From the IMG/VR virus record IMGVR_UViG_3300037076_000108: a DNA stretch of 26,379 bases; one strand, 5' to 3'. The position numbers were made by a program, and so were the translations under genes. The notes beneath the pieces were generated by a model, which saw only the letters and a program-made list of their open reading frames with translations, was not told where the DNA came from and did no database searches. Of the stretch, positions 1 through 26,175 are shown piece after piece (within the stretch, counting starts at the first letter, position 1; every line of letters begins with the position of its first letter). Origin of the DNA: a virus.

Positions 1-1383
1 AGGTGTCGATGCGATAACCATCAACATAAGCTCTACCAGATTCCATTCCAACTGCTAGTTTGTCATTATTTCCCCATTGGTACACATCATTTACTTTAGG
101 AACCAACGGATACCCAGGAGGCGGATTCTGTGGGTCAATCGGGGCCGGTGGATAAATTCCACGATTGATCTTAGCAGGAGTAGGATCTGCAATGATGTAA
201 CTGGTTGTAGTATCAGCGACTTGATTTGGCTTGTAATCTTGATCCAATTGTGCCGTCTTCGTCAGTCCGATGTAATTTGTGATGATGAAGCTCTGTCCTG
301 CGCCTGATCCATTAGACAGGTAGATCTGCATGTTGTTGTACGTGTCATCTAACGCAGACGCAGATGTTGCCAAACTGATCGTGGCGGGTGTTGATGGTAG
401 AACTTCTACAGTCGCTCCAGTTACCACACCAGCAGTGACGAACGATGTATCCAAATGCTCACGCACGTCAATGGCAAAATTGCGTACTGCAAAATCTCCG
501 TTGGCATCGTTCATGCGGGTTGCCATTTCTTTCAATACGATGCTATATGTGTCGGTTGTGACCTTTGCCTGTGTTTGACTGTTGATAAGACGTATCAATT
601 CCACAAAGTTTTGATCGGTACTCGTATCATTGATGTCCTTACTTGTCAGCGTGAGGTCGATCTTATAACGGTGAGCGCCCGGTGCAGCGTAGTTGGTGCT
701 GCTCTGTGCATTGTCATTCAACGAAGGATCTTCTTCGGGCGTAACAATGGATTCTGCTATTTCAAGTCCTACACGACAGCTAACAACATTCGAGTACTTA
801 TTCAACAAAAGGTATTGCCGTTCGACTCGTACAAAGAAGCCCCAAATGTAATAAACACCTTCGTCAATTTGCGCTGATATTGCAAGACCTGTGGGAGCAT
901 TGATTTCGACGGCGGCGAGACCTGTTGTCGAATTGAGTAGAGATATCGTTTCCCCACTGGCGAATACTGTTGCTCCATTTTCTCCTGTATTCAGATACTT
1001 TACATAGATCGTCGGAGAATCGGTGTTGACTGCCGGAACTGAGTAGACAACTTGTGCCTGCAATTTTGTTGTCTGCCCTTGAATAATTTGGTTGTTGAAG
1101 AGTGTCAGATTGATCGGGATTGGAGTAATTCCAAGAAATCCAAACGTCGGTTGCAGCCGCACATAGTTGGTTTTTGCGTCTGTAGCAACCTGCCCCGGAA
1201 TGACCATAGAGCCATGCTGATAGATCGAATTTCCCAAGTACGTCAATTGCTGCTGGAGAATAGTCTGCTCTTGCGTAAGTTCACGGGCTTGTACCGCTAC
1301 AGACGGGCGAAACAAAATGCGATAAAAGTGCTTCGTCTCGTTGTAGTCGTCGTTGTACGGTGTGATGTTGAAATTCAGAGGCA
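1..1383 (-). CDS. Structural protein in the baseplate/tail-fibre module (gp9/gp10 position); partial, start at 1383, 3' end beyond window
   Basis: Minus-strand ATG at 1381-1383, 37 nt after the gp8-like stop. I translated by hand more than 460 codons with no stop down to position 1. The ORF track omits it because there is no stop inside the window. Position after gp6/gp7/gp8 homologues matches the T4 gene order. CTAAATAA motif lies 14 nt upstream. Confidence 0.55.
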
Positions 1384-2985: not shown

Positions 2986-3017
2986 TGTATTCTCCGTAAT
3001 CTATTTAGGCACCATTT

Positions 3018-6000
3018 TTAAGGTGTGATGTTGCTAATACCAACCTGCATCTGAGTGGTTGTGATCTTGATTCTGGACAAACCAGTTATATTGTGATCGG
3101 TTTCAGCCGTGATTCTGCTGACGCCCGTATGAGTTTTTGGTACCGTCACCCGGACTCTCAAAACACCAGTGCGTGTGCGTGTCGTTGTGGCCCGAATTCT
3201 GGACACACCTAACTCAACCTTGATGGTGGTTTTTCGGATAGACGAGATACCATTTTGTGTCTTCGTTTTGGTCAAGCGAATTTCAGACAAACCAGTTATT
3301 GTTTGTAGTGCGGTGGCCTGAATTCTGGTTGCACCAATTCGAGTCTTTGTGTTGATAGCCTGAATTCTCGACACACCCAAGTCTGTCATCTGTCTGGTTG
3401 TAGCTTGGATTCTGGACACACCAGTATGTGTCTTGTTTGTGACAATTGCGAGCTTCGATGTTCCATGCTGTACGTGCGGAGTCGTGATCTGGATTCTGGA
3501 GACGCCGAAAGATGCTGGATTATGTCTTACCTGAATTCTCGACAAACCAGTCTGACCTTGGAAGTTGGAATGGCGAAGTGCTGAGACGCCAGTCAGATTA
3601 TGATGTGTTGTTACGTAAATTCTGGACACACCGCTTTGGGTGTATGTTCTGGTCTGACGAATACGAGAAATTCCACTCTGGAACTTTCTCTTTACAATCC
3701 AGTAGTGACCGCCCTGTGTTTGCTGTTCAGCAGTACGCAAGATACGAGTCGTTCCAAATTGATTCTTGATGGTGGTATTGTGAAGAATGACGCCTCTTTC
3801 AGAAGCCAGCATCGTGCGAAGCGCCTGATACGCCGAATCAATCTCAAAATCGTATATCGCCCGATCATAGAAAATTGCGTAGACCAATGTCCCATTGAAG
3901 TACCCCACCGGAGACGAAGACCCGGAACTGGAAGCCTGCTTGTACTCATTGGTGCCGAAAGTTGTTCTTGCATACAAAGATGCCGGTTGCTCTGTTGGTG
4001 CATAGTTTGACGACGGTTTTCCAAAGTACCAACCTGTCGTATTGATCGTAGGAACTACAGGATAATTCGAGTACGTTACGGAATCTGCTCTACTATTGCT
4101 AACATTACCACTCAACTTTCCTTTGTCGAAACGGAGAACGGCCATGAAGTAGTTGCCATCTTTTATAGTCCCTGTTGGGAAGTCTACCGATTTTGCAGTG
4201 TTGTTGTACTGAACCCGGAAGGAGACGCCACCGCCAGCCCGCACGTCTACAGAAAATCCATTGTCGGACGACGAGTTGATACAATTGACAATCGACATGT
4301 TCGTAGAAATGTCGGGACACAAAGCGATGACAAGAACTGAGCACTGAGACAAGTTTAGTGGTACGCCGGTCGCATTAACAATTTCACTATGCGACGAATC
4401 AAGCTGTACGCCAGCGACCACCCACGTGCCATCAATTGTTTCAACTAGAATGGTATTGCCTAGAACGCCGTCGAACTCGCCCATAGAATTCGGACTGACA
4501 TTGTAGACGATTTGCGGGTCCATACCTTCAAGGAAGTTGTACTCTACAACATCTCCAATTGTCGGAATGGTGCCTGGAGTGTAGATTGCCACATCACTGT
4601 CTACACAAAGATTTGAGTGTTTGGTTTCCGGCGAAACAATCAAGTCGGAGAGAACGATATTTTGAAGATTGCCGATCTGCGTGTTGCCGAACTGCGACCA
4701 GTAGTCTTCATTCGGTGGCGGATACGTCTCACCGAAGCCATCAAACGGCGGGAAGCCCACGAATCTGAATTGTGAGATGGATGCTCTGCTCTGGCCGATA
4801 GGTCCAACCAAGGTCGATGATAGAGCGGATTGAATTTGAATATTGGCATCAGGCGAAATTTTTGTGCGCTGGTCTGGGAAGTTTACAAACGAACCGATGG
4901 TGCGGTTCTTTAGGTTTGCGATCTGTGTGTTTCCCGGCCCAGTGGGAGACCAATAATTTTGATTTGGATACGGATACAAAACGTCCCACTTCACATTCGG
5001 TGGGAAGGCAATGAACTTCATCCAGTCAAAATCTTTGTTCTTTGAGCCGATAACTTTCGGAATGATCGTGTTCAGTTGTCTGGTGTAGATTACCCGTCCA
5101 GTATCATTGACTTCCCAAGGTTCATAAAGAGCAGCTTCAATGAGCGCATATGCGGCTTGTAGTTCCGCCTTTTGACCTACAGTCAACGTGCTGTACGTAT
5201 ATGGTAAGTTGGTGTAGGTAACATATGTGCGCCATGCTTGATCTAGTTCCGCTGTGTACAGAGTGTGGAACCGCACCAACTTATTTTCGATCTGAAGAAT
5301 GTTTTCACGAATGATTCCCAAAAAGTTCGTTTCGGGTTTTGACTCTAAAACTACAGAGCCGAACATCATCATGCCAGCCGGATGCAACAGCGCCTTTACC
5401 ACATCACGATACTTGTCAATGGTCTCACCCACTCGAATGTCGTAAGAGAAGTCTTGCCAGTAGTATGAGTCCTGAATGATCTTATTTGAGCTTGCAAAAC
5501 TGTCCGGTGTTGTTGGGAATCCGCCGACGCCGCCGTCTCGTCCCTGCAACCATCGGCCAGCAGTTTGTGCAACGATGCCCAACACAGGAGGTAGCACGCC
5601 GCCCGATCCCTTTTCTGTATGAATGGTAACGGAAGGTGTTGCCAAAAATCCAAGACCGAAGTCAATAATTGCGATGGACTTGATGCCGCCACGCACGTGT
5701 GTGATCGAATATTGTGTAGTGCTGTCTGGAATGGTGATCCACGGAAGATCTACCGTCGCTACTTTCGTTGTTCCGTTGTATGACACAACAGTTCTACGCT
5801 GACCAACTCCGGTTCCGCCAACAAGAGTGATTTCATCACCCACAAAGAAGTCATCAGTTGAAATTTCGTTGGACGACAACAGAATCTCATTTGGGTTTAG
5901 AAGATCGGCATCGGTGTACGAAGAGTGTACATCCGAGAAGAAGTACATGCCCGGAATACAAATAGCGTCATCCATCGGATTGCCGTCTGTGTTGATCGGC

Positions 6001-9076: not shown

Positions 9077-9601
9077 TTAATGTATCGTTCTCCCGATAAC
9101 AACACGAGATAATCCCATCGCCTCACACCATTGTTTAAGACCAACCCTTTCTATACGCCTACCGTCAAGATGAATGGCTACAAAAGGTTTTTCCTTTGAT
9201 TCAGCAATTCTTTCACAACTTTCGGAAGTAAATTTTCGTCCTATGCCCGCCTGTCGAATTTTCTCTTTTGCTTCTGGAGTATGCTTTCTCCCTTCCATAA
9301 CTCCATCACCACCAACTGAACTGTTGTATCCGGCGACAAAAGTATTCTGTTCTGATATGGCGGTACGCTCCATATCTTTGGCTTCGTTCGCAGACCAACA
9401 CACTGCCACAATTTCATGTGTCCAGCAATCCGTTCCGTACTTTCGGATAGCGTTCCAAAGTTTCACCGTTTTAGTCGTTTTTCTTGATGGAATACGGGCC
9501 AATTTTATATGTTCTCTCCATCGCTCTTCCATTGTTTTGGAAGAGTATCCAATATATGCCTTTCCGGTCATCGTGTTAGTATGCTTGTAAATGGTGTACA
9601 T
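9077..9601 (-). CDS. GIY-YIG homing endonuclease (Seg/I-TevI-like), free-standing
   Basis: N-terminal IYKHTNTMTGKAYIGYSS...RWREH is a GIY-YIG motif. Inserted between the gp25-like and gp6-like genes. Its start overlaps the gp25-like stop (TAATG). Confidence 0.8.
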   Translation of the reverse strand: MYTIYKHTNTMTGKAYIGYSSKTMEERWREHIKLARIPSRKTTKTVKLWNAIRKYGTDCWTHEIVAVCWSANEAKDMERTAISEQNTFVAGYNSSVGGDGVMEGRKHTPEAKEKIRQAGIGRKFTSESCERIAESKEKPFVAIHLDGRRIERVGLKQWCEAMGLSRVVIGRTIH

Positions 9602-9996: not shown

Positions 9997-10048
9997 ACTC
10001 CTATTTAGTGCGTCAACTTAGGAACATCAATTACTTGAGTGAGATATA

Positions 10049-10345: not shown

Positions 10346-10633
10346 CTATTTAACAGCGAACGGCATCGTGATAGCCTTGAATAAAAAGAAGAGAAGCAAG
10401 ATCGTACAAAGCAACTTTGCAAAGAAGACGGACTTGTCTCGATACCATTGGCGCTGTACTGCGACAAAGCCGTCACCAAATGCCCACCATATCAGACGGA
10501 ATGGCGCACATAGGAGCCACCATACGGCGCTGAAGATGAATATAGCAACGTGCTTGATGAAACGGCCAACATACCAGAACACAATGCCGATGAAAAGTAC
10601 AATCCAGCCAAGGAAGTTCATGATGAATATCAT
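10346..10633 (-). CDS. Small integral membrane protein (about 3 TM helices), unknown function
   Basis: 95 aa, strongly hydrophobic (FIMNFLGWIVLFIGIVFWYVG...). Packed 11 nt after the gp5-like stop and 6 nt before the PAAR start. Confidence 0.5.
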   Translation of the reverse strand: MIFIMNFLGWIVLFIGIVFWYVGRFIKHVAIFIFSAVWWLLCAPFRLIWWAFGDGFVAVQRQWYRDKSVFFAKLLCTILLLFFLFKAITMPFAVK

Positions 10634-12045: not shown

Positions 12046-12060
12046 CGGATTTATATAGCG

Positions 12061-12447
12061 GTGCCTCTTGACAAAGTTGATACATCTATGGTAGTCTTAA
12101 TCATGCAGGAAATCATAAGCTACAGCGCAATGATCTGGAAGGACGAAGAGCGCACCGACTTCGTTGTTGTTGGTCACGACGGCGAATATGCCGACATGAG
12201 CAACCCGAATGGCGAGATCATCCGGGAACGGTACTTCATTCAAGCAGAGGACGCTCTAGGGCATCGTCGGACGTGGGGCGGATATTACGAGACCCTGGAA
12301 GCCGCTGAAGCAGCCTACAGCCTCCTAGCGCCTCCGGTGGAGTTTTGGGAAGACGCTCGGCCTTGCTACGGTAGCGAAGCCTGGACTCCTGAAGTGGACG
12401 CCGAAGAAGCTGCAATGGAACGTGAAAATGATCGGTGGGAGCGCTAA
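12061..12447 (+). CDS. Hypothetical protein, first gene of a plus-strand small-gene operon; true start may be a later in-frame ATG (12088, 12103 or 12130)
   Basis: 128-aa ORF, acidic C-terminus. Divergent from the gp5-like gene. A TTGACA hexamer lies inside the annotated 5' end. Confidence 0.45.
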   Translation: MPLDKVDTSMVVLIMQEIISYSAMIWKDEERTDFVVVGHDGEYADMSNPNGEIIRERYFIQAEDALGHRRTWGGYYETLEAAEAAYSLLAPPVEFWEDARPCYGSEAWTPEVDAEEAAMERENDRWER

Positions 12448-13357: not shown

Positions 13358-13493
13358 TTGCTCGACAGAGCTTGTAGAGGAATTCTACGGGGAAACACCT
13401 AAGTCCAAGGAAACACAGCCGTCGTAAAATCCGACCGTGGTGAGGGGCTTTCATACAGGATTCCCGATTTGCTAAATAGCGAAGAGGGAAACC

Positions 13494-13907
13494 ATGCCAT
13501 ACGAAGACCACCAAAAGCAACTTGATTATCTAAGAGAATACAAAAAACGTCCAGCAGTAAAAACAAAACGGGCCGAAGACGCCAAAAAAGAGCGGCTGGC
13601 AGATCCATCTCGAATCAAACGCAATATCGCTAACTACAAGGAACGACTCCACAAAGATATTCTGAAAGCCTACGGCGGGCGGTGTGTGTGTTGCAGTGAA
13701 AGTCATCCGTTATTCCTCACCCTAGATCACATCAATAACGACGGCGCACAGCATCGCAAATCCATCAACTGCGGAAAAGGTAGGGGCGGCACCAAATTTT
13801 ATGCCTGGGTCAAGCGCAATAATTTTCCAAATACACTTCAATTGTTATGCTGGAATTGTAATTGTGGTAAGCATCGCAACGGTGGCACATGTCCACATAA
13901 AGGATGA
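13494..13907 (+). CDS. HNH endonuclease
   Basis: 137 aa. CVCCSESHP...LTLDHINNDGAQHRKSIN...QLLCWNCNCGKH gives CxxC...DH..N...N...CxxC, the HNH pattern. GAGGGA SD and CTAAATAG motif upstream. Ends 4 nt before tRNA-Gly. Confidence 0.8.
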   Translation: MPYEDHQKQLDYLREYKKRPAVKTKRAEDAKKERLADPSRIKRNIANYKERLHKDILKAYGGRCVCCSESHPLFLTLDHINNDGAQHRKSINCGKGRGGTKFYAWVKRNNFPNTLQLLCWNCNCGKHRNGGTCPHKG

Positions 13908-13911
13908 AATT

Positions 13912-13985
13912 TGGAGCGGAGTGCGAGACTCGAACTCGCATCTTGAGACTGGCAGTCTCAGGCACAGCCCTTATACCAACCCCGC
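13912..13985 (-). tRNA. tRNA-Gly(GCC)
   Basis: Manual fold: acceptor GCGGGGT/ACTCCGC, T-arm GCGAG-TTCGAGT-CTCGC, anticodon arm TGAGA-CTGCCAG-TCTCA (anticodon GCC). 74 nt with encoded CCA. Confidence 0.7.
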
Positions 13986-14000
13986 AAAGGGAATAAATTT

Positions 14001-14074
14001 TGGAGCGGACGGCGGGACTCGAACCCGCATCTCAAGATTGGAAATCTTGGGCACAACCTTTATACCACACCCGC
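14001..14074 (-). tRNA. tRNA-Gly(UCC)
   Basis: Paralogue of the previous tRNA on the same scaffold: acceptor GCGGGTG/CGTCCGC, T-arm GCGGG-TTCGAGT-CCCGC, anticodon arm CAAGA-TTTCCAA-TCTTG (anticodon UCC). 74 nt with CCA. Confidence 0.7.
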
Positions 14075-14398: not shown

Positions 14399-14403
14399 TC
14401 TAT

Positions 14404-14799
14404 TTAGGCAACGTGAAAAAGACGAAGAAGGATCAACGTCGAATTCCAGATCACCAGCAACGAAAACAGCGTATTCACGAAGCGCCAGCCCTTCTCCGTG
14501 TTGACAGACGACCGAAGAGTCATGAACCCAACAATCACCAGGACCATCAGGAGCTTTCCAACCAGTAAGCCGGAAAGCAATCCAAGCGCCGGGAAGAAAC
14601 GTGAAATGACTGGATTTGCTTCACCCAATCCACACGAAAACCCGGTCAACGTAGTCATCACGTCGAGAGCTTGCAAAAAGACAAATGCCTGAAAGCCTTT
14701 GTTCGTTGTTAGCGTTGAAACGTTAACCACGAATCCATAGTACCACACTCTGGTACCGATGTCAAGGGTTTGCTGCTTAATCTCGTTTGCGAACGCCAA
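14404..14799 (-). CDS. Multi-pass membrane protein, unknown function
   Basis: 131-aa ORF with several hydrophobic stretches (LGLLSGLLVGKLLMVLVIVGFMTL; LFSLLVIWNSTLILL). The start may be an internal Met. Confidence 0.4.
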   Translation of the reverse strand: MAFANEIKQQTLDIGTRVWYYGFVVNVSTLTTNKGFQAFVFLQALDVMTTLTGFSCGLGEANPVISRFFPALGLLSGLLVGKLLMVLVIVGFMTLRSSVNTEKGWRFVNTLFSLLVIWNSTLILLRLFHVA

Positions 14800-14971
14800 A
14801 ACGAATGATGCCCCAGAACCCGCCCCAGATCACCTTGAAGTTATGACCGTAACCCTTGCCATTGAAGAAGTTTACCACGAACGGCAACACGATCAGAAAA
14901 ATGAATGGATAAAGCAGCCACATCAAGATTCGATACAGCACCAATCCAAAACCGATGTCGAAAAAGCCCAT
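14777..14971 (-). CDS. Small membrane protein (2 TM)
   Basis: 64 aa, LVLYRILMWLLYPFIFLIVLPFVVNFF. GGGAG SD 9 nt upstream of the ATG. Confidence 0.5.
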   Translation of the reverse strand: MGFFDIGFGLVLYRILMWLLYPFIFLIVLPFVVNFFNGKGYGHNFKVIWGGFWGIIRFGVRKRD

Positions 14972-15040
14972 TTGGTTACTCCCTTACAAAACCACAATAC
15001 ATGAAGAAACCATCATATTCATTGTTACCCTTATCCGCCA

Positions 15041-15250
15041 CTACTCGAATCCGATGATTGGTCGGAGTTGTTCCAACACTTCTGTTGCCTGCTTTTTGCT
15101 ATATCTCTGAGAATGTACGGAGTAACCTTCTCCCCACCAGATGTAAAGGAACGTAGATCCGCTTCGGCAATGTGCGTTGACGCCGTAGATGGCTGAGAGA
15201 ATAGGTTCAAGCTCGGCCTCAATTCCCTTTAGTGTCGTTGTTAGTCGCAT
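15041..15250 (-). CDS. Hypothetical small protein (69 aa from internal Met of the 115-aa ORF)
   Basis: ORF only. Overlaps the alternative-frame ORF 15031-15222. Confidence 0.3.
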   Translation of the reverse strand: MRLTTTLKGIEAELEPILSAIYGVNAHCRSGSTFLYIWWGEGYSVHSQRYSKKQATEVLEQLRPIIGFE

Positions 15251-15425
15251 GTTTGTCTCTATCTTGAAAATAGAGGTCGAGTTCATCAAGCAGCACTTCT
15301 CCATTGTCGCCGTCGCCACCAGACTTCCAACAGAAGTAGTCGCTGAAGTCATGCAGATCAACTTGCTCGATAAACCTAAAAATCTCAACAGATCGAGGAT
15401 CGTGCGGGTCCATTACATTCCCCAC
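15219..15425 (-). CDS. Hypothetical acidic protein
   Basis: 68-aa ORF rich in D/E. Confidence 0.35.
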   Translation of the reverse strand: MGNVMDPHDPRSVEIFRFIEQVDLHDFSDYFCWKSGGDGDNGEVLLDELDLYFQDRDKHATNNDTKGN

Positions 15426-15649
15426 ATTTTTTTCAGAAGTGTCTTTGCCTGTTTGTCGTATTTCTTTGGGAGGTCTTCGATGGTAACACCAAGATAGGTG
15501 AACAGAGAAGACATGTATTCGTCCCTATACATCGCATCATTCATTGACCATGCAGTTATGAGAGTGAGCTTACCGTCTACCAGATCGTAGAAAGCATCGG
15601 CTTCGCCCAAATCATCATCACAAAAGGATTTCACGTAAATTGTTCGCAT
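15413..15649 (-). CDS. Hypothetical protein
   Basis: 78-aa ORF following the ArfB-like gene. Confidence 0.45.
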   Translation of the reverse strand: MRTIYVKSFCDDDLGEADAFYDLVDGKLTLITAWSMNDAMYRDEYMSSLFTYLGVTIEDLPKKYDKQAKTLLKKMWGM

Positions 15650-15670
15650 ATTTGTCCTTTACGAAGTAAT

Positions 15671-16051
15671 CTATACGCCACCATTCTCCAGGTACTCAAT
15701 CTTGATCGTGCCGTCTTTCAGACCCTCGTCCACCATCCGGTCAACACGAGCTTTGATTTGTTCTGGAGTTTCTGGGATTTGTTGCCCCATTCGCTTGGCG
15801 CATTCGACTTTGTGCCATTGCTTAAACTTTGGGGTGTTGGCAAGACGCACGAGCGCATCTTCCCGGTTTCTTGTGTTACTTCGGTGGTCTCTACCTTCTC
15901 CGACCGCACCGGAAGCCGTATGGATCAAACGGACGCCACTATTGCTGGTATCCTTGCCGCCACCGCCATGCCCGCCTACGCTAAAGGTCTGCATTTCCAG
16001 ATCCTTCATCGTGACGGAAAATAAAAGTTCTTGCTTCTTCTTTTCACTCAT
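15671..16051 (-). CDS. RF-1 domain / ArfB (YaeJ)-like peptidyl-tRNA hydrolase family protein with degenerate GGQ motif
   Basis: SGAVGEGRDHRSNTRNREDALVRL aligns with E. coli ArfB [27 protein letters not shown] (recalled). At the catalytic GGQ position the sequence reads SVGGHGGGGKD. GGAGTGAAATC SD. Extended -10 promoter 85 nt upstream. Confidence 0.7.
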   Translation of the reverse strand: MSEKKKQELLFSVTMKDLEMQTFSVGGHGGGGKDTSNSGVRLIHTASGAVGEGRDHRSNTRNREDALVRLANTPKFKQWHKVECAKRMGQQIPETPEQIKARVDRMVDEGLKDGTIKIEYLENGGV

Positions 16052-16135
16052 GATTTCACTCCATCTCTGTTGTTAAACACACGTCTGCCGCTTTGGTGCG
16101 TAGCTAAGATGGAGATTGAAATTTCATCTACAGTA

Positions 16136-16144
16136 ATTATACCA
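16136..16144 (-). promoter_or_regulatory. Extended -10 element TGGTATAAT (sigma70-like) upstream of the ArfB-like gene
   Basis: The reverse complement of attatacca is TGGTATAAT. It lies immediately downstream of the MVP terminator and 85 nt upstream of the ATG at 16051. Confidence 0.5.
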
Positions 16145-16146
16145 CA

Positions 16147-16182
16147 ACGAAAAAGGCGGATCGCCCCGAAGAGCGACCCGCC
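16147..16182 (-). terminator. Rho-independent terminator after the MVP-like gene
   Basis: On minus-strand RNA: GGCGGGUCGC-UCUUCGGG-GCGAUCCGCC (9 of 10 bp, CUUCGG-type loop) followed by UUUUUCGUUGUGG. Sits 19 nt after the stop at 16201. Confidence 0.7.
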
Positions 16183-16200
16183 ACCGGCTGCAACGTTGGC

Positions 16201-23707: not shown

Positions 23708-23786
23708 TGGTAGCCGTGGTGGGACTCGAACCCACACTGTTCAGGTTTTGAATCTGTTGTCTCCTGCCAAATTGGACTACACGGCT
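23708..23786 (-). tRNA. Atypical tRNA or tRNA-like, paralogue of the previous one; best fold gives anticodon CAA with a weak 3-bp anticodon stem
   Basis: 79 nt. Perfect acceptor AGCCGTG/CACGGCT and T-arm GTGGG-TTCGAGT-CCCAC. The anticodon region ACAGA-TTCAAAA-CCTGA pairs poorly. Possibly a pseudo-tRNA. Confidence 0.4.
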
Positions 23787-24044
23787 ATAAACTTGTTCAG
23801 GAACTTTCACGATGAAGGGTAGTGTTTGAACCTCCGACCCAAACCTACCGTACTCAGAATTGCGTAGCATCTTAACAATACGCAATTTCCGGTAATACGA
23901 CTTCACTTCTTCTCGTGTTACTTCCACAAATGATTTCATAATTTGTTGAGCCAGGGACGGACCATCGAACCCGTATCGGTTGCCTTTCAGCACGCCCAAT
24001 GTAGCGCCCGGTTTTACCTTTGTTAAACTACCCTGACCCAAGTT

Positions 24045-24132
24045 TGGTGGCCGGGGTGGGACTCGAACCCACACACCCTTGCGGATACCAGCTTTTGAGG
24101 CTGGCGTGTCTACCAGTTCCATCCACCCGGCC
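24045..24132 (-). tRNA. tRNA-Leu(CAA)
   Basis: 88 nt, class II. Acceptor GGCCGGG/CCCGGCC, GGTAGAC D-loop, anticodon arm CCAGC-CTCAAAA-GCTGG, long variable arm, T-arm GTGGG-TTCGAGT-CCCAC, CCA. Confidence 0.75.
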
Positions 24133-24310
24133 AAAACTCTTTGAAAACTGCAAGAACAGTGAGGCTTGCCATTTCTAGCAAGAAGGTGAAGGCTTGCAGT
24201 TTTCAAAATTCATTCCTATCGAAACAAAATCACAACAAATGCCAAGAGCACAACCAAACCCGCTATCAGCGTCAGGGTGCTATCTACCGGCCCTTGTCGA
24301 TCAAACCTGC

Positions 24311-24457
24311 TCATAAATTCGCTTCGATCTCTGACCAGCATTCCTTACAGCGTGCGAATAGATCGCCGTAGCGGTGGCGCATCTCACGGTGGCAGTCACA
24401 ACACCACCAGACCAACTCACATGCCTCTTCGCCCTTCTCTTCGCACGTACAAGGCAT
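24311..24457 (-). CDS. Cys-rich mini-protein (48 aa)
   Basis: MPCTCEEKGEEACELVWWCCDCHREMRHRYGDLFARCKECW. The ATG lies 2 nt after the stop of the upstream zinc-ribbon gene. Confidence 0.35.
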   Translation of the reverse strand: MPCTCEEKGEEACELVWWCCDCHREMRHRYGDLFARCKECWSEIEANL

Positions 24458-24459
24458 TT

Positions 24460-24654
24460 CTACCACTGGTTCCACGGTACCTCGTCTCTGGAAAAACGAA
24501 CCGTCTTCGGATGCTTCGACGTATACAGCCGACTCTGAAACTTTCTGGAGAGAATGATCTCTTCTACAGAAGCCGGTCTCGGCTCGTTCTCTTTCGGAAG
24601 CGTGCCGCAATTTGGACAGCGCCGCCCAACGAACTCTTCATCACAACACTTCAT
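24460..24654 (-). CDS. Zinc-ribbon mini-protein (64 aa)
   Basis: MKCCDEEFVGRRCPNCGTLPKENEP... starts 6 nt after the tRNA-Leu(UAG) 3' end. Confidence 0.45.
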   Translation of the reverse strand: MKCCDEEFVGRRCPNCGTLPKENEPRPASVEEIILSRKFQSRLYTSKHPKTVRFSRDEVPWNQW

Positions 24655-24660
24655 AAAATC

Positions 24661-24747
24661 TGGTGGCCAAGGTGGGAGTCGAACCCACACGCCCTTTCGA
24701 GCACTTGCTTCTAAGGCAAGCGAGACTGCCAATTCCTCCACTCGGCC
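24661..24747 (-). tRNA. tRNA-Leu(UAG)
   Basis: 87 nt, class II. Acceptor GGCCGAG/CTTGGCC, anticodon arm CTTGC-CTTAGAA-GCAAG, long variable arm, T-arm GTGGG-TTCGACT-CCCAC, CCA. Confidence 0.75.
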
Positions 24748-24752
24748 AAACT

Positions 24753-24947
24753 TTAAGAAAACACATTCTGCGCCTGATTGTACGCCCAATCTGGCGGGTC
24801 TTCACACAGCGTCCATGCAAAATGAATCGCTGACAACTGCAAACTCAAAATCCTCGTCTTTGTGGTTTCGGGAATTTTGCTTTCCTTCACGTAAAGATCT
24901 TTGATGCGCTCGTACTGAGCCTGGACTTCATTCTCCGGTCGAATCAT
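24753..24947 (-). CDS. Hypothetical small protein (64 aa)
   Basis: GAGGAA SD before the ATG. Overlapping stop/start (ATGA) with the upstream HNH gene. Confidence 0.5.
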   Translation of the reverse strand: MIRPENEVQAQYERIKDLYVKESKIPETTKTRILSLQLSAIHFAWTLCEDPPDWAYNQAQNVFS

Positions 24948-25285
24948 AATTCCTCTACCAATTCATTATACTCCTGTTCTTCCAATTGTCTATCGGCCTC
25001 CAGGAGCATCCGCTCTTCGTAATGATGGATCGCATGACAATTGGCACAGACGCATTCGCATTTCGCAATTTCTTCTTTCACTTGCTTGAGCGACTTCTGC
25101 AACATCACCGCAGAACCAATCTCGAATTTTTTCTCGCCTGCGCCTGTATGATGGAATTGCAAAGCAGCCGGATGGTTGAACCCACATCTACTGCATGACA
25201 GCGTTTTCTTATACTCTGCAATCCACTGACGAACTTCTGCACGTTTTGCCGCTCGTCTTATTGCGGCGGCTGGACTCTTAGACAT
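24944..25285 (-). CDS. HNH-family endonuclease
   Basis: 113 aa. CSRCGFNHPAALQFHH...KCECVCANCHAIHH is a CxxC...HH...CxxCH arrangement. Confidence 0.6.
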   Translation of the reverse strand: MSKSPAAAIRRAAKRAEVRQWIAEYKKTLSCSRCGFNHPAALQFHHTGAGEKKFEIGSAVMLQKSLKQVKEEIAKCECVCANCHAIHHYEERMLLEADRQLEEQEYNELVEEL

Positions 25286-25310
25286 TACTCATATCTATCA
25301 TCCAAGAAAA

Positions 25311-25386
25311 TGGTCAGGGAGGTTGGAGTCGAACCAACGGCATCTCGCTTCCAAAGCGAGAACTCTGGCCTCTGAGCTACTCCCTG
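25311..25386 (-). tRNA. tRNA-Pro(UGG)
   Basis: 76 nt. Acceptor CAGGGAG/CTCCCTG, D-stem GCTC/GAGT, anticodon arm CTCGC-TTTGGAA-GCGAG, T-arm GTTGG-TTCGACT-CCAAC, CCA. Confidence 0.7.
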
Positions 25387-25501
25387 ATGGTCGGACAGGG
25401 GAGAATGGTTACTCCCTAACTACGATGCTTAACATGTGGTCATTCGTAGTCGTTACCGCTGTAAGGGCGGGATAGGTTCAAACAACCCCTGCTGTCCTAG
25501 T

Positions 25502-25593
25502 TGAGTAGATGAGACTTGAACTCACAAAAGCGCTTTCGCCTCACGCTCACCGGGTTGCGAATCCGGCGTGTTTCCCACTTCCACCACTACTCA
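25502..25593 (-). tRNA. tRNA-like element, class-II length, non-canonical anticodon arm (identity undetermined, possible pseudo-tRNA)
   Basis: Acceptor TGAGTAG/CTACTCA, T-arm GTGAG-TTCAAGT-CTCAT, hairpinned long variable arm. Anticodon region CCGG-ATTCGCAAC-CCGG gives either a 9-nt loop or an A:C mispair. No encoded CCA. The HNH gene stop lies inside its 5' acceptor strand. Confidence 0.35.
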
Positions 25594-26069
25594 AACACTC
25601 TTCGATCTCGTCTCGTCTTCAATGTGTGGCAATTAGAACAAAGTAATTGAAGATTTTCTAACCGATTATCACGATGGTCGCCGTTAATGTGATCCAACTC
25701 AGTCACCTTTTCTCCAAACCATTCCGTCAATCCACATTGGGCGCACACATCAATCAACATATTCTCACGAATCAATCTTTTTTTAAGAGCATCCGAATTC
25801 ATCGAAACACAATTTTTTATCAAATATGATTCAATGTTCTTCTTCGGACCAGTTCGTTTACCCTTACTCCATGCTTGGCCGGTGAAATGAGAAGTATCAA
25901 TCAAAAATTTTTCTGCCAGCAATCGTAGGTACGACTGTAATCCAGTAGACCCTTTTCGATCTAACTTCCGGCATACATCAGCCCAAGAAGAACTTCCATT
26001 CACTACCACACTGAGAGATTCCTTCGTGTGTTTATGATATTTTGGCATACGCAGATTATTTATACTCAC
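25587..26069 (-). CDS. HNH homing endonuclease
   Basis: 160 aa. C-terminal CAQCGLTEW...LDHINGDHRDNRLENLQLLCSNCH is an HNH motif. GTG start inside a hairpin whose loop carries TATAAATA. Confidence 0.8.
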   Translation of the reverse strand: MSINNLRMPKYHKHTKESLSVVVNGSSSWADVCRKLDRKGSTGLQSYLRLLAEKFLIDTSHFTGQAWSKGKRTGPKKNIESYLIKNCVSMNSDALKKRLIRENMLIDVCAQCGLTEWFGEKVTELDHINGDHRDNRLENLQLLCSNCHTLKTRRDRRVFE

Positions 26070-26087
26070 TGCGTATGCCAGATTGAT

Positions 26088-26175
26088 TGGTCGCCGGGGT
26101 GAGGCTCGAACTCACACGCCCTTTCGGACACCAGACTCTCATTCTGGCTTGTCTACCAAATTCCAGCACCCGGCG
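26088..26175 (-). tRNA. tRNA-Leu(GAG)
   Basis: 88 nt, class II. Acceptor CGCCGGG/CCCGGCG, GGTAGAC D-loop, anticodon arm CCAGA-ATGAGAG-TCTGG, long variable arm, T-arm GTGAG-TTCGAGC-CTCAC, CCA. Confidence 0.7.

Follow-up and report, generated by a model that had tools for sequence, protein, structure and literature searches.

The shell of the eukaryotic vault is assembled from the major vault protein (MVP), in 78 copies, as known from the vault literature, and viral MVPs have been reported only recently, without expression data. A 2023 bioRxiv preprint (10.1101/2023.11.10.566534) described MVP homologs in two gut phages and contains nothing on promoters, terminators or gene context. Here, we focus on the transcription signals that border an MVP gene in the viral record IMGVR_UViG_3300037076_000108, a stretch of 26,379 nt that was analysed over its whole length and is hereafter called the window; the gene features discussed are located on its minus strand. 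These signals make it likely that the locus consists of two units, one carrying the MVP gene and a second one in which transcription restarts downstream, an assessment that leaves aside the details of the leader of the second unit. Intrinsic (Rho-independent) terminators and sigma-70 promoters are textbook elements, and the locus appears to provide a new and well-conserved instance of them on an unusual gene.

The closest described counterparts belong to different systems. Morons are reportedly autonomous extra genes of lambdoid phages (Juhala et al. and Hendrix et al., 2000), and the MVP unit seems moron-like in design, as it combines a gene that looks non-essential with a sigma-70-type promoter and a factor-independent terminator of its own (both identified here in silico), and with variable neighbours. 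It differs from lambdoid morons in residing in a phage of the T4 superfamily, probably virulent, and in having a slightly atypical composition that tracks each genome; the window yielded no sign of lysogeny genes. The early units of T4-like phages offer another comparison, since a T4-type structural gene set, a separate TAAATA motif before structural genes, and apparent sigma-70-type promoters among tRNAs, homing endonucleases and small open reading frames (ORFs) are also found here. T4 early promoters have an extended consensus of their own. With regard to the restart behind MVP, the E. coli galP1 promoter, of the extended -10 (TGn) class, likewise possesses a TG one base before a perfect TATAAT and no recognisable -35. 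At the locus under study, unlike galP1, the terminator just upstream takes up the -35 position with its 3' arm, resulting in a compact terminator-promoter overlap.

The MVP gene was compared with homologs sharing 35-90% identity in phage and metagenome contigs, namely, those on IMG/VR contigs (loci L001-L007), those from Joint Genome Institute (JGI) metagenomes and one metagenome-assembled-genome (MAG) contig (L008-L029), and those of two published huge-phage genomes (LR756501 and LR756500). Every comparison locus was fetched via its MVP or its ArfB-like gene. A DNA-level search with positions 15000-19500 of the window gave zero matches in the phage collection, which thus contains no annotated close relative. 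Sequence motifs alone being weak evidence, the argument draws its weight from comparative position and from conservation across lineages; within the window, the counts of TGNTATAAT, TGNTANAAT, GATRYATCA, HTAAATA and TATAAAT show no significant excess. The elements on which the argument is built are the following:

18823..18795, minus strand, putative sigma-70-type MVP promoter, with the -35 TTGACA at 18823..18818, a 17-nt spacer, TG at 18803..18802 and the -10 TATTCT at 18800..18795
18747..16201, minus strand, MVP ORF of 848 amino acids, with the stop codon TAA at 16203..16201
16182..16147, minus strand, predicted intrinsic terminator, made of a stem-loop (16182..16155) followed by U5 and CGU (16154..16147)
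16144..16136, minus strand, extended -10 element TGgTATAAT (TGGTATAAT), hexamer matching at 6/6 positions and TG one base before it, one copy in the window

Judging from its sequence, the product of the 848-amino-acid ORF is a true MVP homolog. It matches the Pfam families MVP_shoulder (1e-19) and Vault_3 (1e-7), and it is collinear with the solved human and rat MVP (PDB chains) over residues 458-765, with E values of 1e-15 to 3e-17; PHROGs and NCBIfam hold no family for it. The start codon is preceded by a Shine-Dalgarno sequence, AAGGA, at 18765..18761, which is kept in all seven lineages compared upstream of the gene.

Every hairpin followed by a T-tail on either strand of the window was scored with a d'Aubenton-Carafa-type formula, using energies from ViennaRNA. 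The hairpin behind MVP reaches d=39.6 (T-tract weight 4.17), whereas the runner-up among distinct sites, both strands included, has a score of -11. When the window was shuffled 30 times with its dinucleotides preserved, the best score averaged -1.4 with a maximum of 18.4, and 0/30 reach 39.6, so that the hairpin at 16182..16155 stands out as the only credible intrinsic terminator in the 26 kb, far beyond what chance would produce. It is present as a single copy in the window. The stem begins at the 19th nt after the MVP stop, leaving 18 nt between the two, and has the form GGCGGGUCGCUC-UUCG-GGGCGAUCCGCC, i.e., 12 pairs (9 G-C, 1 A-U and 2 G-U) capped by a UUCG tetraloop. Its energy amounts to -23.4 kcal/mol alone, the centroid structure in context to -24.6, and the fold is more stable than shuffles of the same 59 nt (z = -2.97). 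The U-rich tract UUUUUCGUUGUGG begins at the base of the stem, with U5 at 16154..16150 and CGUUGUGG next. An earlier note on this DNA had proposed that a GC-rich hairpin with a T-tract forms a Rho-independent terminator after MVP, a proposal borne out by the score, by the fold and by the conservation described below. The location that it gave, with the stem starting at the 19th nt, was also right, but the hairpin had been drawn with 10 base pairs and an 8-nt loop instead of the 12 base pairs and UUCG loop found here.

A hairpin with a T-tract is present 9-32 nt past the MVP stop in the window and L008-L010, L005, L001, L004, L015, L016, L018, L020, L022, L023 and LR756501, the last being a 735-kb phage; L007, L011 and L014 have a strong hairpin with a weaker tail. 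The stems are unrelated in sequence among the MVP lineages, the position and the T-tract being kept down to about 37% MVP identity. As a control, other ORFs of at least 80 amino acids on the same contigs were searched for a hairpin of -15 kcal/mol or below with a T-rich tail, at most 90 nt past the stop. Such a structure follows 10 of the 17 distinct MVP genes and 3 of the 132 other ORFs (Fisher p=4e-9), which argues that the terminator belongs to the MVP gene and not to these genomes generally. On these grounds, we have high confidence in a strong intrinsic terminator after MVP, with a predicted RNA 3' end at about 16150..16146. As far as Rfam is concerned, neither this hairpin nor the leader of the ArfB-like gene that follows is a match to a described RNA family: a scan of the window at gathering thresholds returned tRNAs only, and a permissive scan of 15950..16260 yielded only noise (E 0.4-2.5, with scores far under gathering).

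Upstream of MVP, the TTGACA-17-TATTCT promoter indicated in the earlier note is present, TTGACA matching at 6/6 positions and TATTCT at 4/6, with an additional TG (TGc) before the -10. The pattern TTGAC(A/T/G)-16..18-(TGc)TAnnnT is kept in seven lineages with at least 58% identity (window, L008, L005, L007, L001, L011 and L004), in which the -35 and the -10 are the sole conserved blocks within the 140 nt before the MVP start codon, the flanks having otherwise diverged. The end of the -10 is separated from the MVP ATG by 23-47 nt in these seven lineages, and in six of them the site ranks in the top 0.5-2% of the 120-nt windows of its own locus. Neither this promoter nor the one behind the terminator is significant as a motif alone, and both are supported by where they lie and by being kept in relatives. 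On that basis, there is good confidence that an upstream sigma-70-type promoter drives MVP, transcription being predicted to start near G18788.

A further element is associated with this promoter:

18882..18851, minus strand, near-palindrome of 32 nt, the ends of which are two GAT(G/A)(T/C)ATC boxes, GATGTATC ... GGTACATC

The inverted repeat is complementary at 16/18 positions and begins inside the stop codon of the upstream orf136. One or two GATRYATC boxes are located 17-59 nt (typically 33-40) upstream of the -35 in the window, L008, L005, L007 and L001, and their positions relative to the MVP start are -173/-115 in L008, -110/-91 in L005, -105 in L007 and -131/-113 in L001. As the upstream genes differ among lineages, the box travels with the MVP unit. 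Boxes are almost absent elsewhere in the five box-bearing loci, and their count inside the window alone is not significant. The palindrome represents a candidate operator or activator site for the MVP promoter. A further GATRYATC copy was noticed at 12078-12086, 22 nt ahead of the TATATAAAT that precedes the hub gene.

The earlier note had also placed an extended -10 directly after the terminator, and TGgTATAAT is indeed found there and kept in L008-L010, L007 and L001. The hexamers at 16-18 nt spacing match TTGACA at no more than 2/6 positions, and this missing -35 fits the extended -10 class. The element lies 9-15 nt after the terminator stem, as TGGTATAAT in the window and L008-L010, TGTTATAAT in L007 and TGGTACAAT in L001, and it survives while the surrounding stems and leaders are unalignable; L004 has TACAAT after its terminator, and in L022 TGGTATAAT comes some 40 nt later. 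Over the first 30 nt behind the terminator, TAYAAT is found in 4 of the 10 terminator-bearing lineages against a background of 1.0% per 30-nt window (nominal P 2e-6) and TGnTAYAAT in 3 of the 10 against 0.13% (nominal P 2e-7), binomial values that are optimistic because the lineages carrying the extended -10 are not independent of one another (69-90% MVP identity). An ATG is located 7-11 nt after the -10 hexamer in four lineages; in L007 and L001, it is that of the first ORF, exactly 7 nt after the -10 as in leaderless mRNA, a spacing that supports a downstream promoter. In L002, which has no terminator, TTGACC-16-TGGTATAAC directly follows the MVP stop. It is reasonably probable that the extended -10 at 16144..16136 functions as a downstream promoter, the start being predicted at A16129 or G16128. 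In other respects, the region 6550-7520 of L002 (the same in L003/L012) contains, after TGGTATAAC, eight direct copies of TGGCTACGAAAA with a spacing of about 30-100 nt, as well as at least five inverted copies, TTTTCGTAGCC, forming an iteron-like array.

The type of phage bears on the polymerase that would read these signals. The window holds T4-type baseplate genes coding for a gp5-like hub and gp6-, gp7- and gp25-like wedge proteins, among others. The gp6-like protein shares about 41% identity with its counterpart in Pelagibacter phage HTVC008M, and its T4-like relatives number in the thousands; by these genes the phage is a member of the T4 superfamily. Phages of the T4 superfamily are not known to encode an RNA polymerase; they rely on the host sigma-70 holoenzyme for early genes, and on a gp55-type factor at late promoters resembling TATAAATA. 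Motifs resembling the T4-type late class, HTAAATA or (C/T/A)TAAATA, and a related site are distributed as follows:

1400-1406, 3002-3008, 10002-10008, 10347-10353, 14401-14407, 19621-19627 and 26057-26063, minus strand, HTAAATA, T4-type-late-like
13472-13478, plus strand, HTAAATA, T4-type-late-like
12047-12055, minus strand, TATATAAAT, preceding the hub gene

HTAAATA lies on the coding strand in 7 of the 8 copies, and is found 6-25 nt before the starts of wedge520, the gp25-like gene, orf96, the phosphatase gene, an HNH gene and orf112; no copy precedes MVP or the ArfB-like gene. This distribution suggests two promoter classes in the window. Given the sigma-70 consensus, the affiliation to the T4 superfamily and the presence of the late-type motif on baseplate genes instead, MVP would be an early gene for the unmodified host polymerase.

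Several observations weigh against the two-unit architecture, and each has to be set beside the explanation that it would favour. The promoter and terminator rules applied are E. coli-like and may not be those of the host, and a simple promoter scan of the window returned 17 sites compared with 15.2 in shuffles, which is the chance level. The sigma-70-like motifs might be unused and the MVP region be part of a long middle or late transcript made by a modified polymerase, which the late-type ATAAATA situated 0.8 kb upstream (19621..19627) could feed. We regard this as very improbable, considering that the -35 and -10 are the only blocks conserved upstream of MVP in seven lineages, that the late-type motif is absent before both MVP and the ArfB-like gene, and that an MVP-specific terminator makes little sense in a long operon. 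A terminator is missing after MVP in L002/L012, L029, L017, L019, L021 and LR756500, and some read-through is likely in the window, the U-tract comprising only five uninterrupted U. It may then be asked whether the terminator is real and TGGTATAAT not a working promoter, the hairpin serving as an attenuator by which MVP output is kept high and downstream output low, and the downstream genes being expressed by read-through. Besides the modest U5, such a scheme would account for L005 (terminator) and L011 (hairpin), in which no clear -10 is found behind the structure, and it is in line with the 0.66 occurrences of TGNTATAAT expected by chance per window and with the lack of a -35. It remains unlikely in our view, as the element is kept in place in window/L008, L007 and L001 amid diverged stems and leaders and is enriched over background, four lineages have an ATG where transcription would be expected to begin, and the full TTGACC-16-TGGTATAAC of L002 is found in a locus without terminator.

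The hairpin itself could mainly be a stabiliser of the RNA 3' end or a processing site rather than a polymerase stop. A very stable stem with a UUCG loop is a typical exonuclease barrier, and L011, L016 and L014 keep the hairpin with a poor T-tract. However, a stabiliser has no need of the T-tract that is found at the stem base in most lineages, and the terminator score is well over that of all shuffles, which makes this function improbable as the main one; both roles are compatible. The perfect-looking palindrome in an intergenic spacer also led us to consider an inverted repeat acting as DNA, whether by binding a protein, by serving in recombination or as a repeat element. This was rejected as having hardly any probability, since the window contains the hairpin only once, and unrelated stems combined with a kept position and T-tract are the signature of an RNA structure.

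In the two-unit architecture that we favour, the host sigma-70 RNA polymerase would start at TTGACA-17-TGcTATTCT, near G18788, and produce early in infection a monocistronic MVP mRNA about 2.64 kb long, of which the first 40 nt or so are the leader. It would stop at about 16150..16146, at the hairpin and U5 that lie 18 nt beyond the MVP stop, and the 3' hairpin would probably also protect the MVP mRNA by slowing exonucleases. By the same token, the terminator would shield the downstream genes from the strong MVP promoter. A strong promoter paired with a terminator of its own suits a protein required in large amounts, given the copy number of MVP in eukaryotic vault shells. Transcription would restart at TGgTATAAT, 13 nt beyond the stem, probably a weaker promoter with no -35, and the second unit would comprise the ArfB-like gene followed by four to five small ORFs, up to the next promoter at 14765..14737. 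This second transcript would open almost directly with a mini-ORF, and its leader would fold over the ribosome-binding site (RBS) and the start codon of the ArfB-like gene. The features of the second unit are listed below:

16127..16104, minus strand, mini-ORF of 7 codons, AUG AAA UUU CAA UCU CCA UCU UAG (MKFQSPS*)
16114..16059, minus strand, predicted leader helix, in which CUCCAUCU (16114..16107) pairs with AGAUGGAG (16066..16059)
16051..15671, minus strand, RF-1-domain (ArfB-like) gene of 126 amino acids (Pfam RF-1 3e-10, phrog_3122 1e-18)
15649..14777, minus strand, four to five tightly packed small ORFs behind the ArfB-like gene
14765..14737, minus strand, putative sigma-70-type promoter with extended -10, TTGACA-17-TGgTACTAT, ahead of the DUF5658 gene and with no terminator before it

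The order MVP then ArfB-like gene is also found in L007, L008 and L011. In the ArfB-like protein, the catalytic GGQ is replaced by GGGGKD, which is invariant in four aligned homologs, and the protein may not hydrolyse peptidyl-tRNA in the usual way. A profile scan of viral contigs recovered L007 again and one homolog with 47% identity (L038), the latter in another context and with no leader. As no positive-scoring terminator-like site is present in 15649..14777, the small ORFs probably share the ArfB-like transcript up to the next sigma-70-type promoter, of which a counterpart, TTGACA-17-TGgTAGACT, exists at the homologous place in L008 (about 5262-5290).

The leader spans 16135-16052 (minus strand) in the window, 3330-3417 in L008 and about 3900-3973 in L007. 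The mini-ORF, which starts 2-3 nt after the predicted transcription start and is thus near-leaderless, has relatives in L008 (MKFHYPS*) and L007 (MLFHYPS*). Its 3' codons constitute the 5' arm of the leader helix; the AGAUGGAG arm includes the GGAG Shine-Dalgarno sequence of the ArfB-like gene, whose AUG is likewise covered by the outer pairs. An equivalent helix covering the RBS can be drawn in the window (z=-1.8), L008 (z=-3.5) and L007 (z=-2.5), in partly different registers, and the ACGUGUGU block in the loop of the leader is invariant. A search for the mini-ORF motif TTYCAYTATCCATCCTAG in IMG/VR gave nine loci, of which one is L007 and the other eight are chance matches within unrelated coding sequence; no new lineages were obtained. 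The extended -10 of L007 is followed first by an ORF (3790-3900) for a 34-amino-acid hydrophobic peptide, MRLDLNLNENARNVAVTALICLVLIVGMLCGAIK, inserted before the mini-ORF and without counterpart in the window. It is a tentative proposal that the leader fold keeps the ArfB-like gene at low or conditional translation, and the mini-ORF could be a by-product of helix pairing. To be set against this proposal, an RNAalifold consensus of the leader, built from three sequences only, contains one compensatory pair and has an unfavourable covariation term.

A bolder proposal, to which we attach little probability, is that the transcript of the second unit constitutes a termination-sensing translational switch and that, together with the GATRYATC palindrome, the MVP/ArfB-like pair forms a regulated two-unit module. 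In this scheme, a near-leaderless heptapeptide ORF, M(K/L)F(Q/H)(S/Y)PS-UAG, would pair through its last codons with the RBS and AUG of the GGQ-less gene, and a ribosome lingering at Pro-Ser-UAG would unwind the helix, thereby turning on the release-factor-like protein. The leader can be compared with translational control by leader structures or peptides masking an RBS, such as ermC-type attenuation and, as a loose analogy, release-factor-2 autoregulation: a short ORF pairs with the Shine-Dalgarno sequence and AUG of the next gene, and the product of that gene is a release-factor-domain protein. A frameshift site like that of prfB is absent. If the switch is real, the phage would tie the output of a ribosome-rescue-type factor to the translation-termination state of the infected cell.

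With regard to the genomic context, MVP is embedded in an accessory region of tRNAs, homing endonucleases and small ORFs, the tRNA genes being interspersed with the homing-endonuclease genes. The neighbouring features of the window are as follows:

13912-14074, 19627-19716, 20242-20548 and 23473-26175, all minus strand, twelve tRNA genes (Gly x2, Ser x3, Leu x5, Pro and Ala)
9077-9601, GIY-YIG homing endonuclease
24944-25285 and 13494-13907, HNH homing endonucleases
19178-19615, minus strand, dual-specificity/tyrosine-phosphatase-like gene (Pfam PTP-NADK, PTP-SAK)
21990-22757, minus strand, gene of an R2K-clade ATP-grasp protein

The surroundings of MVP vary among lineages. In L007, it directly follows a homolog of the window ORF 19886..20044, and the phosphatase gene and orf136 are missing. 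L005 and L001 share other genes with the window, the genes after MVP being different and the ArfB-like gene lacking, and in L002 and L004 MVP is the only gene shared with the window. The G+C content of MVP, the highest among the window genes, is 0.530 compared with 0.480 for the whole window, with a value of 0.605 at third codon positions (GC3). In six lineages, it exceeds that of the flanks by 1-8 points and tracks each genome, from 0.46 to 0.57. A recent horizontal insertion was considered, but the composition speaks little for it since the G+C content follows each genome, and the data fit MVP better as a long-standing gene of a variable accessory region than as a newcomer. No relative lacking MVP between the same neighbours was found, all loci having been fetched via MVP or the ArfB-like gene. 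The self-contained, host-polymerase-driven cassette inserted among phage genes that the earlier note had pictured thus keeps its own promoter and terminator; the host polymerase is deduced from the type of phage and promoter, and the insertion is the weaker part of the picture. In other respects, an MVP homolog with 57% identity is present in L029 (JAKFUT010000352.1), a 20-kb contig of an 'Obscuribacterales' MAG, and thus assigned to a bacterial genome; both the terminator and the sigma-70 promoter are missing there.

The understanding of transcription itself is left unchanged by these elements, and the parts that could prove to be more than textbook are the upstream palindrome and the structured leader before the GGQ-less RF-domain gene. 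The predictions are precise as to the RNA ends, placing the 5' end at about 18788 and the 3' end at about 16148, with transcription restarting at about 16129. The locus also represents a compact promoter-gene-terminator cassette, which could be cloned as is for testing whether the phage MVP builds vault-like shells in bacteria. For the biology of these phages, the analysis sets the vault-protein gene apart, in many phage lineages, as an insulated monocistronic unit that is probably strongly and early expressed.

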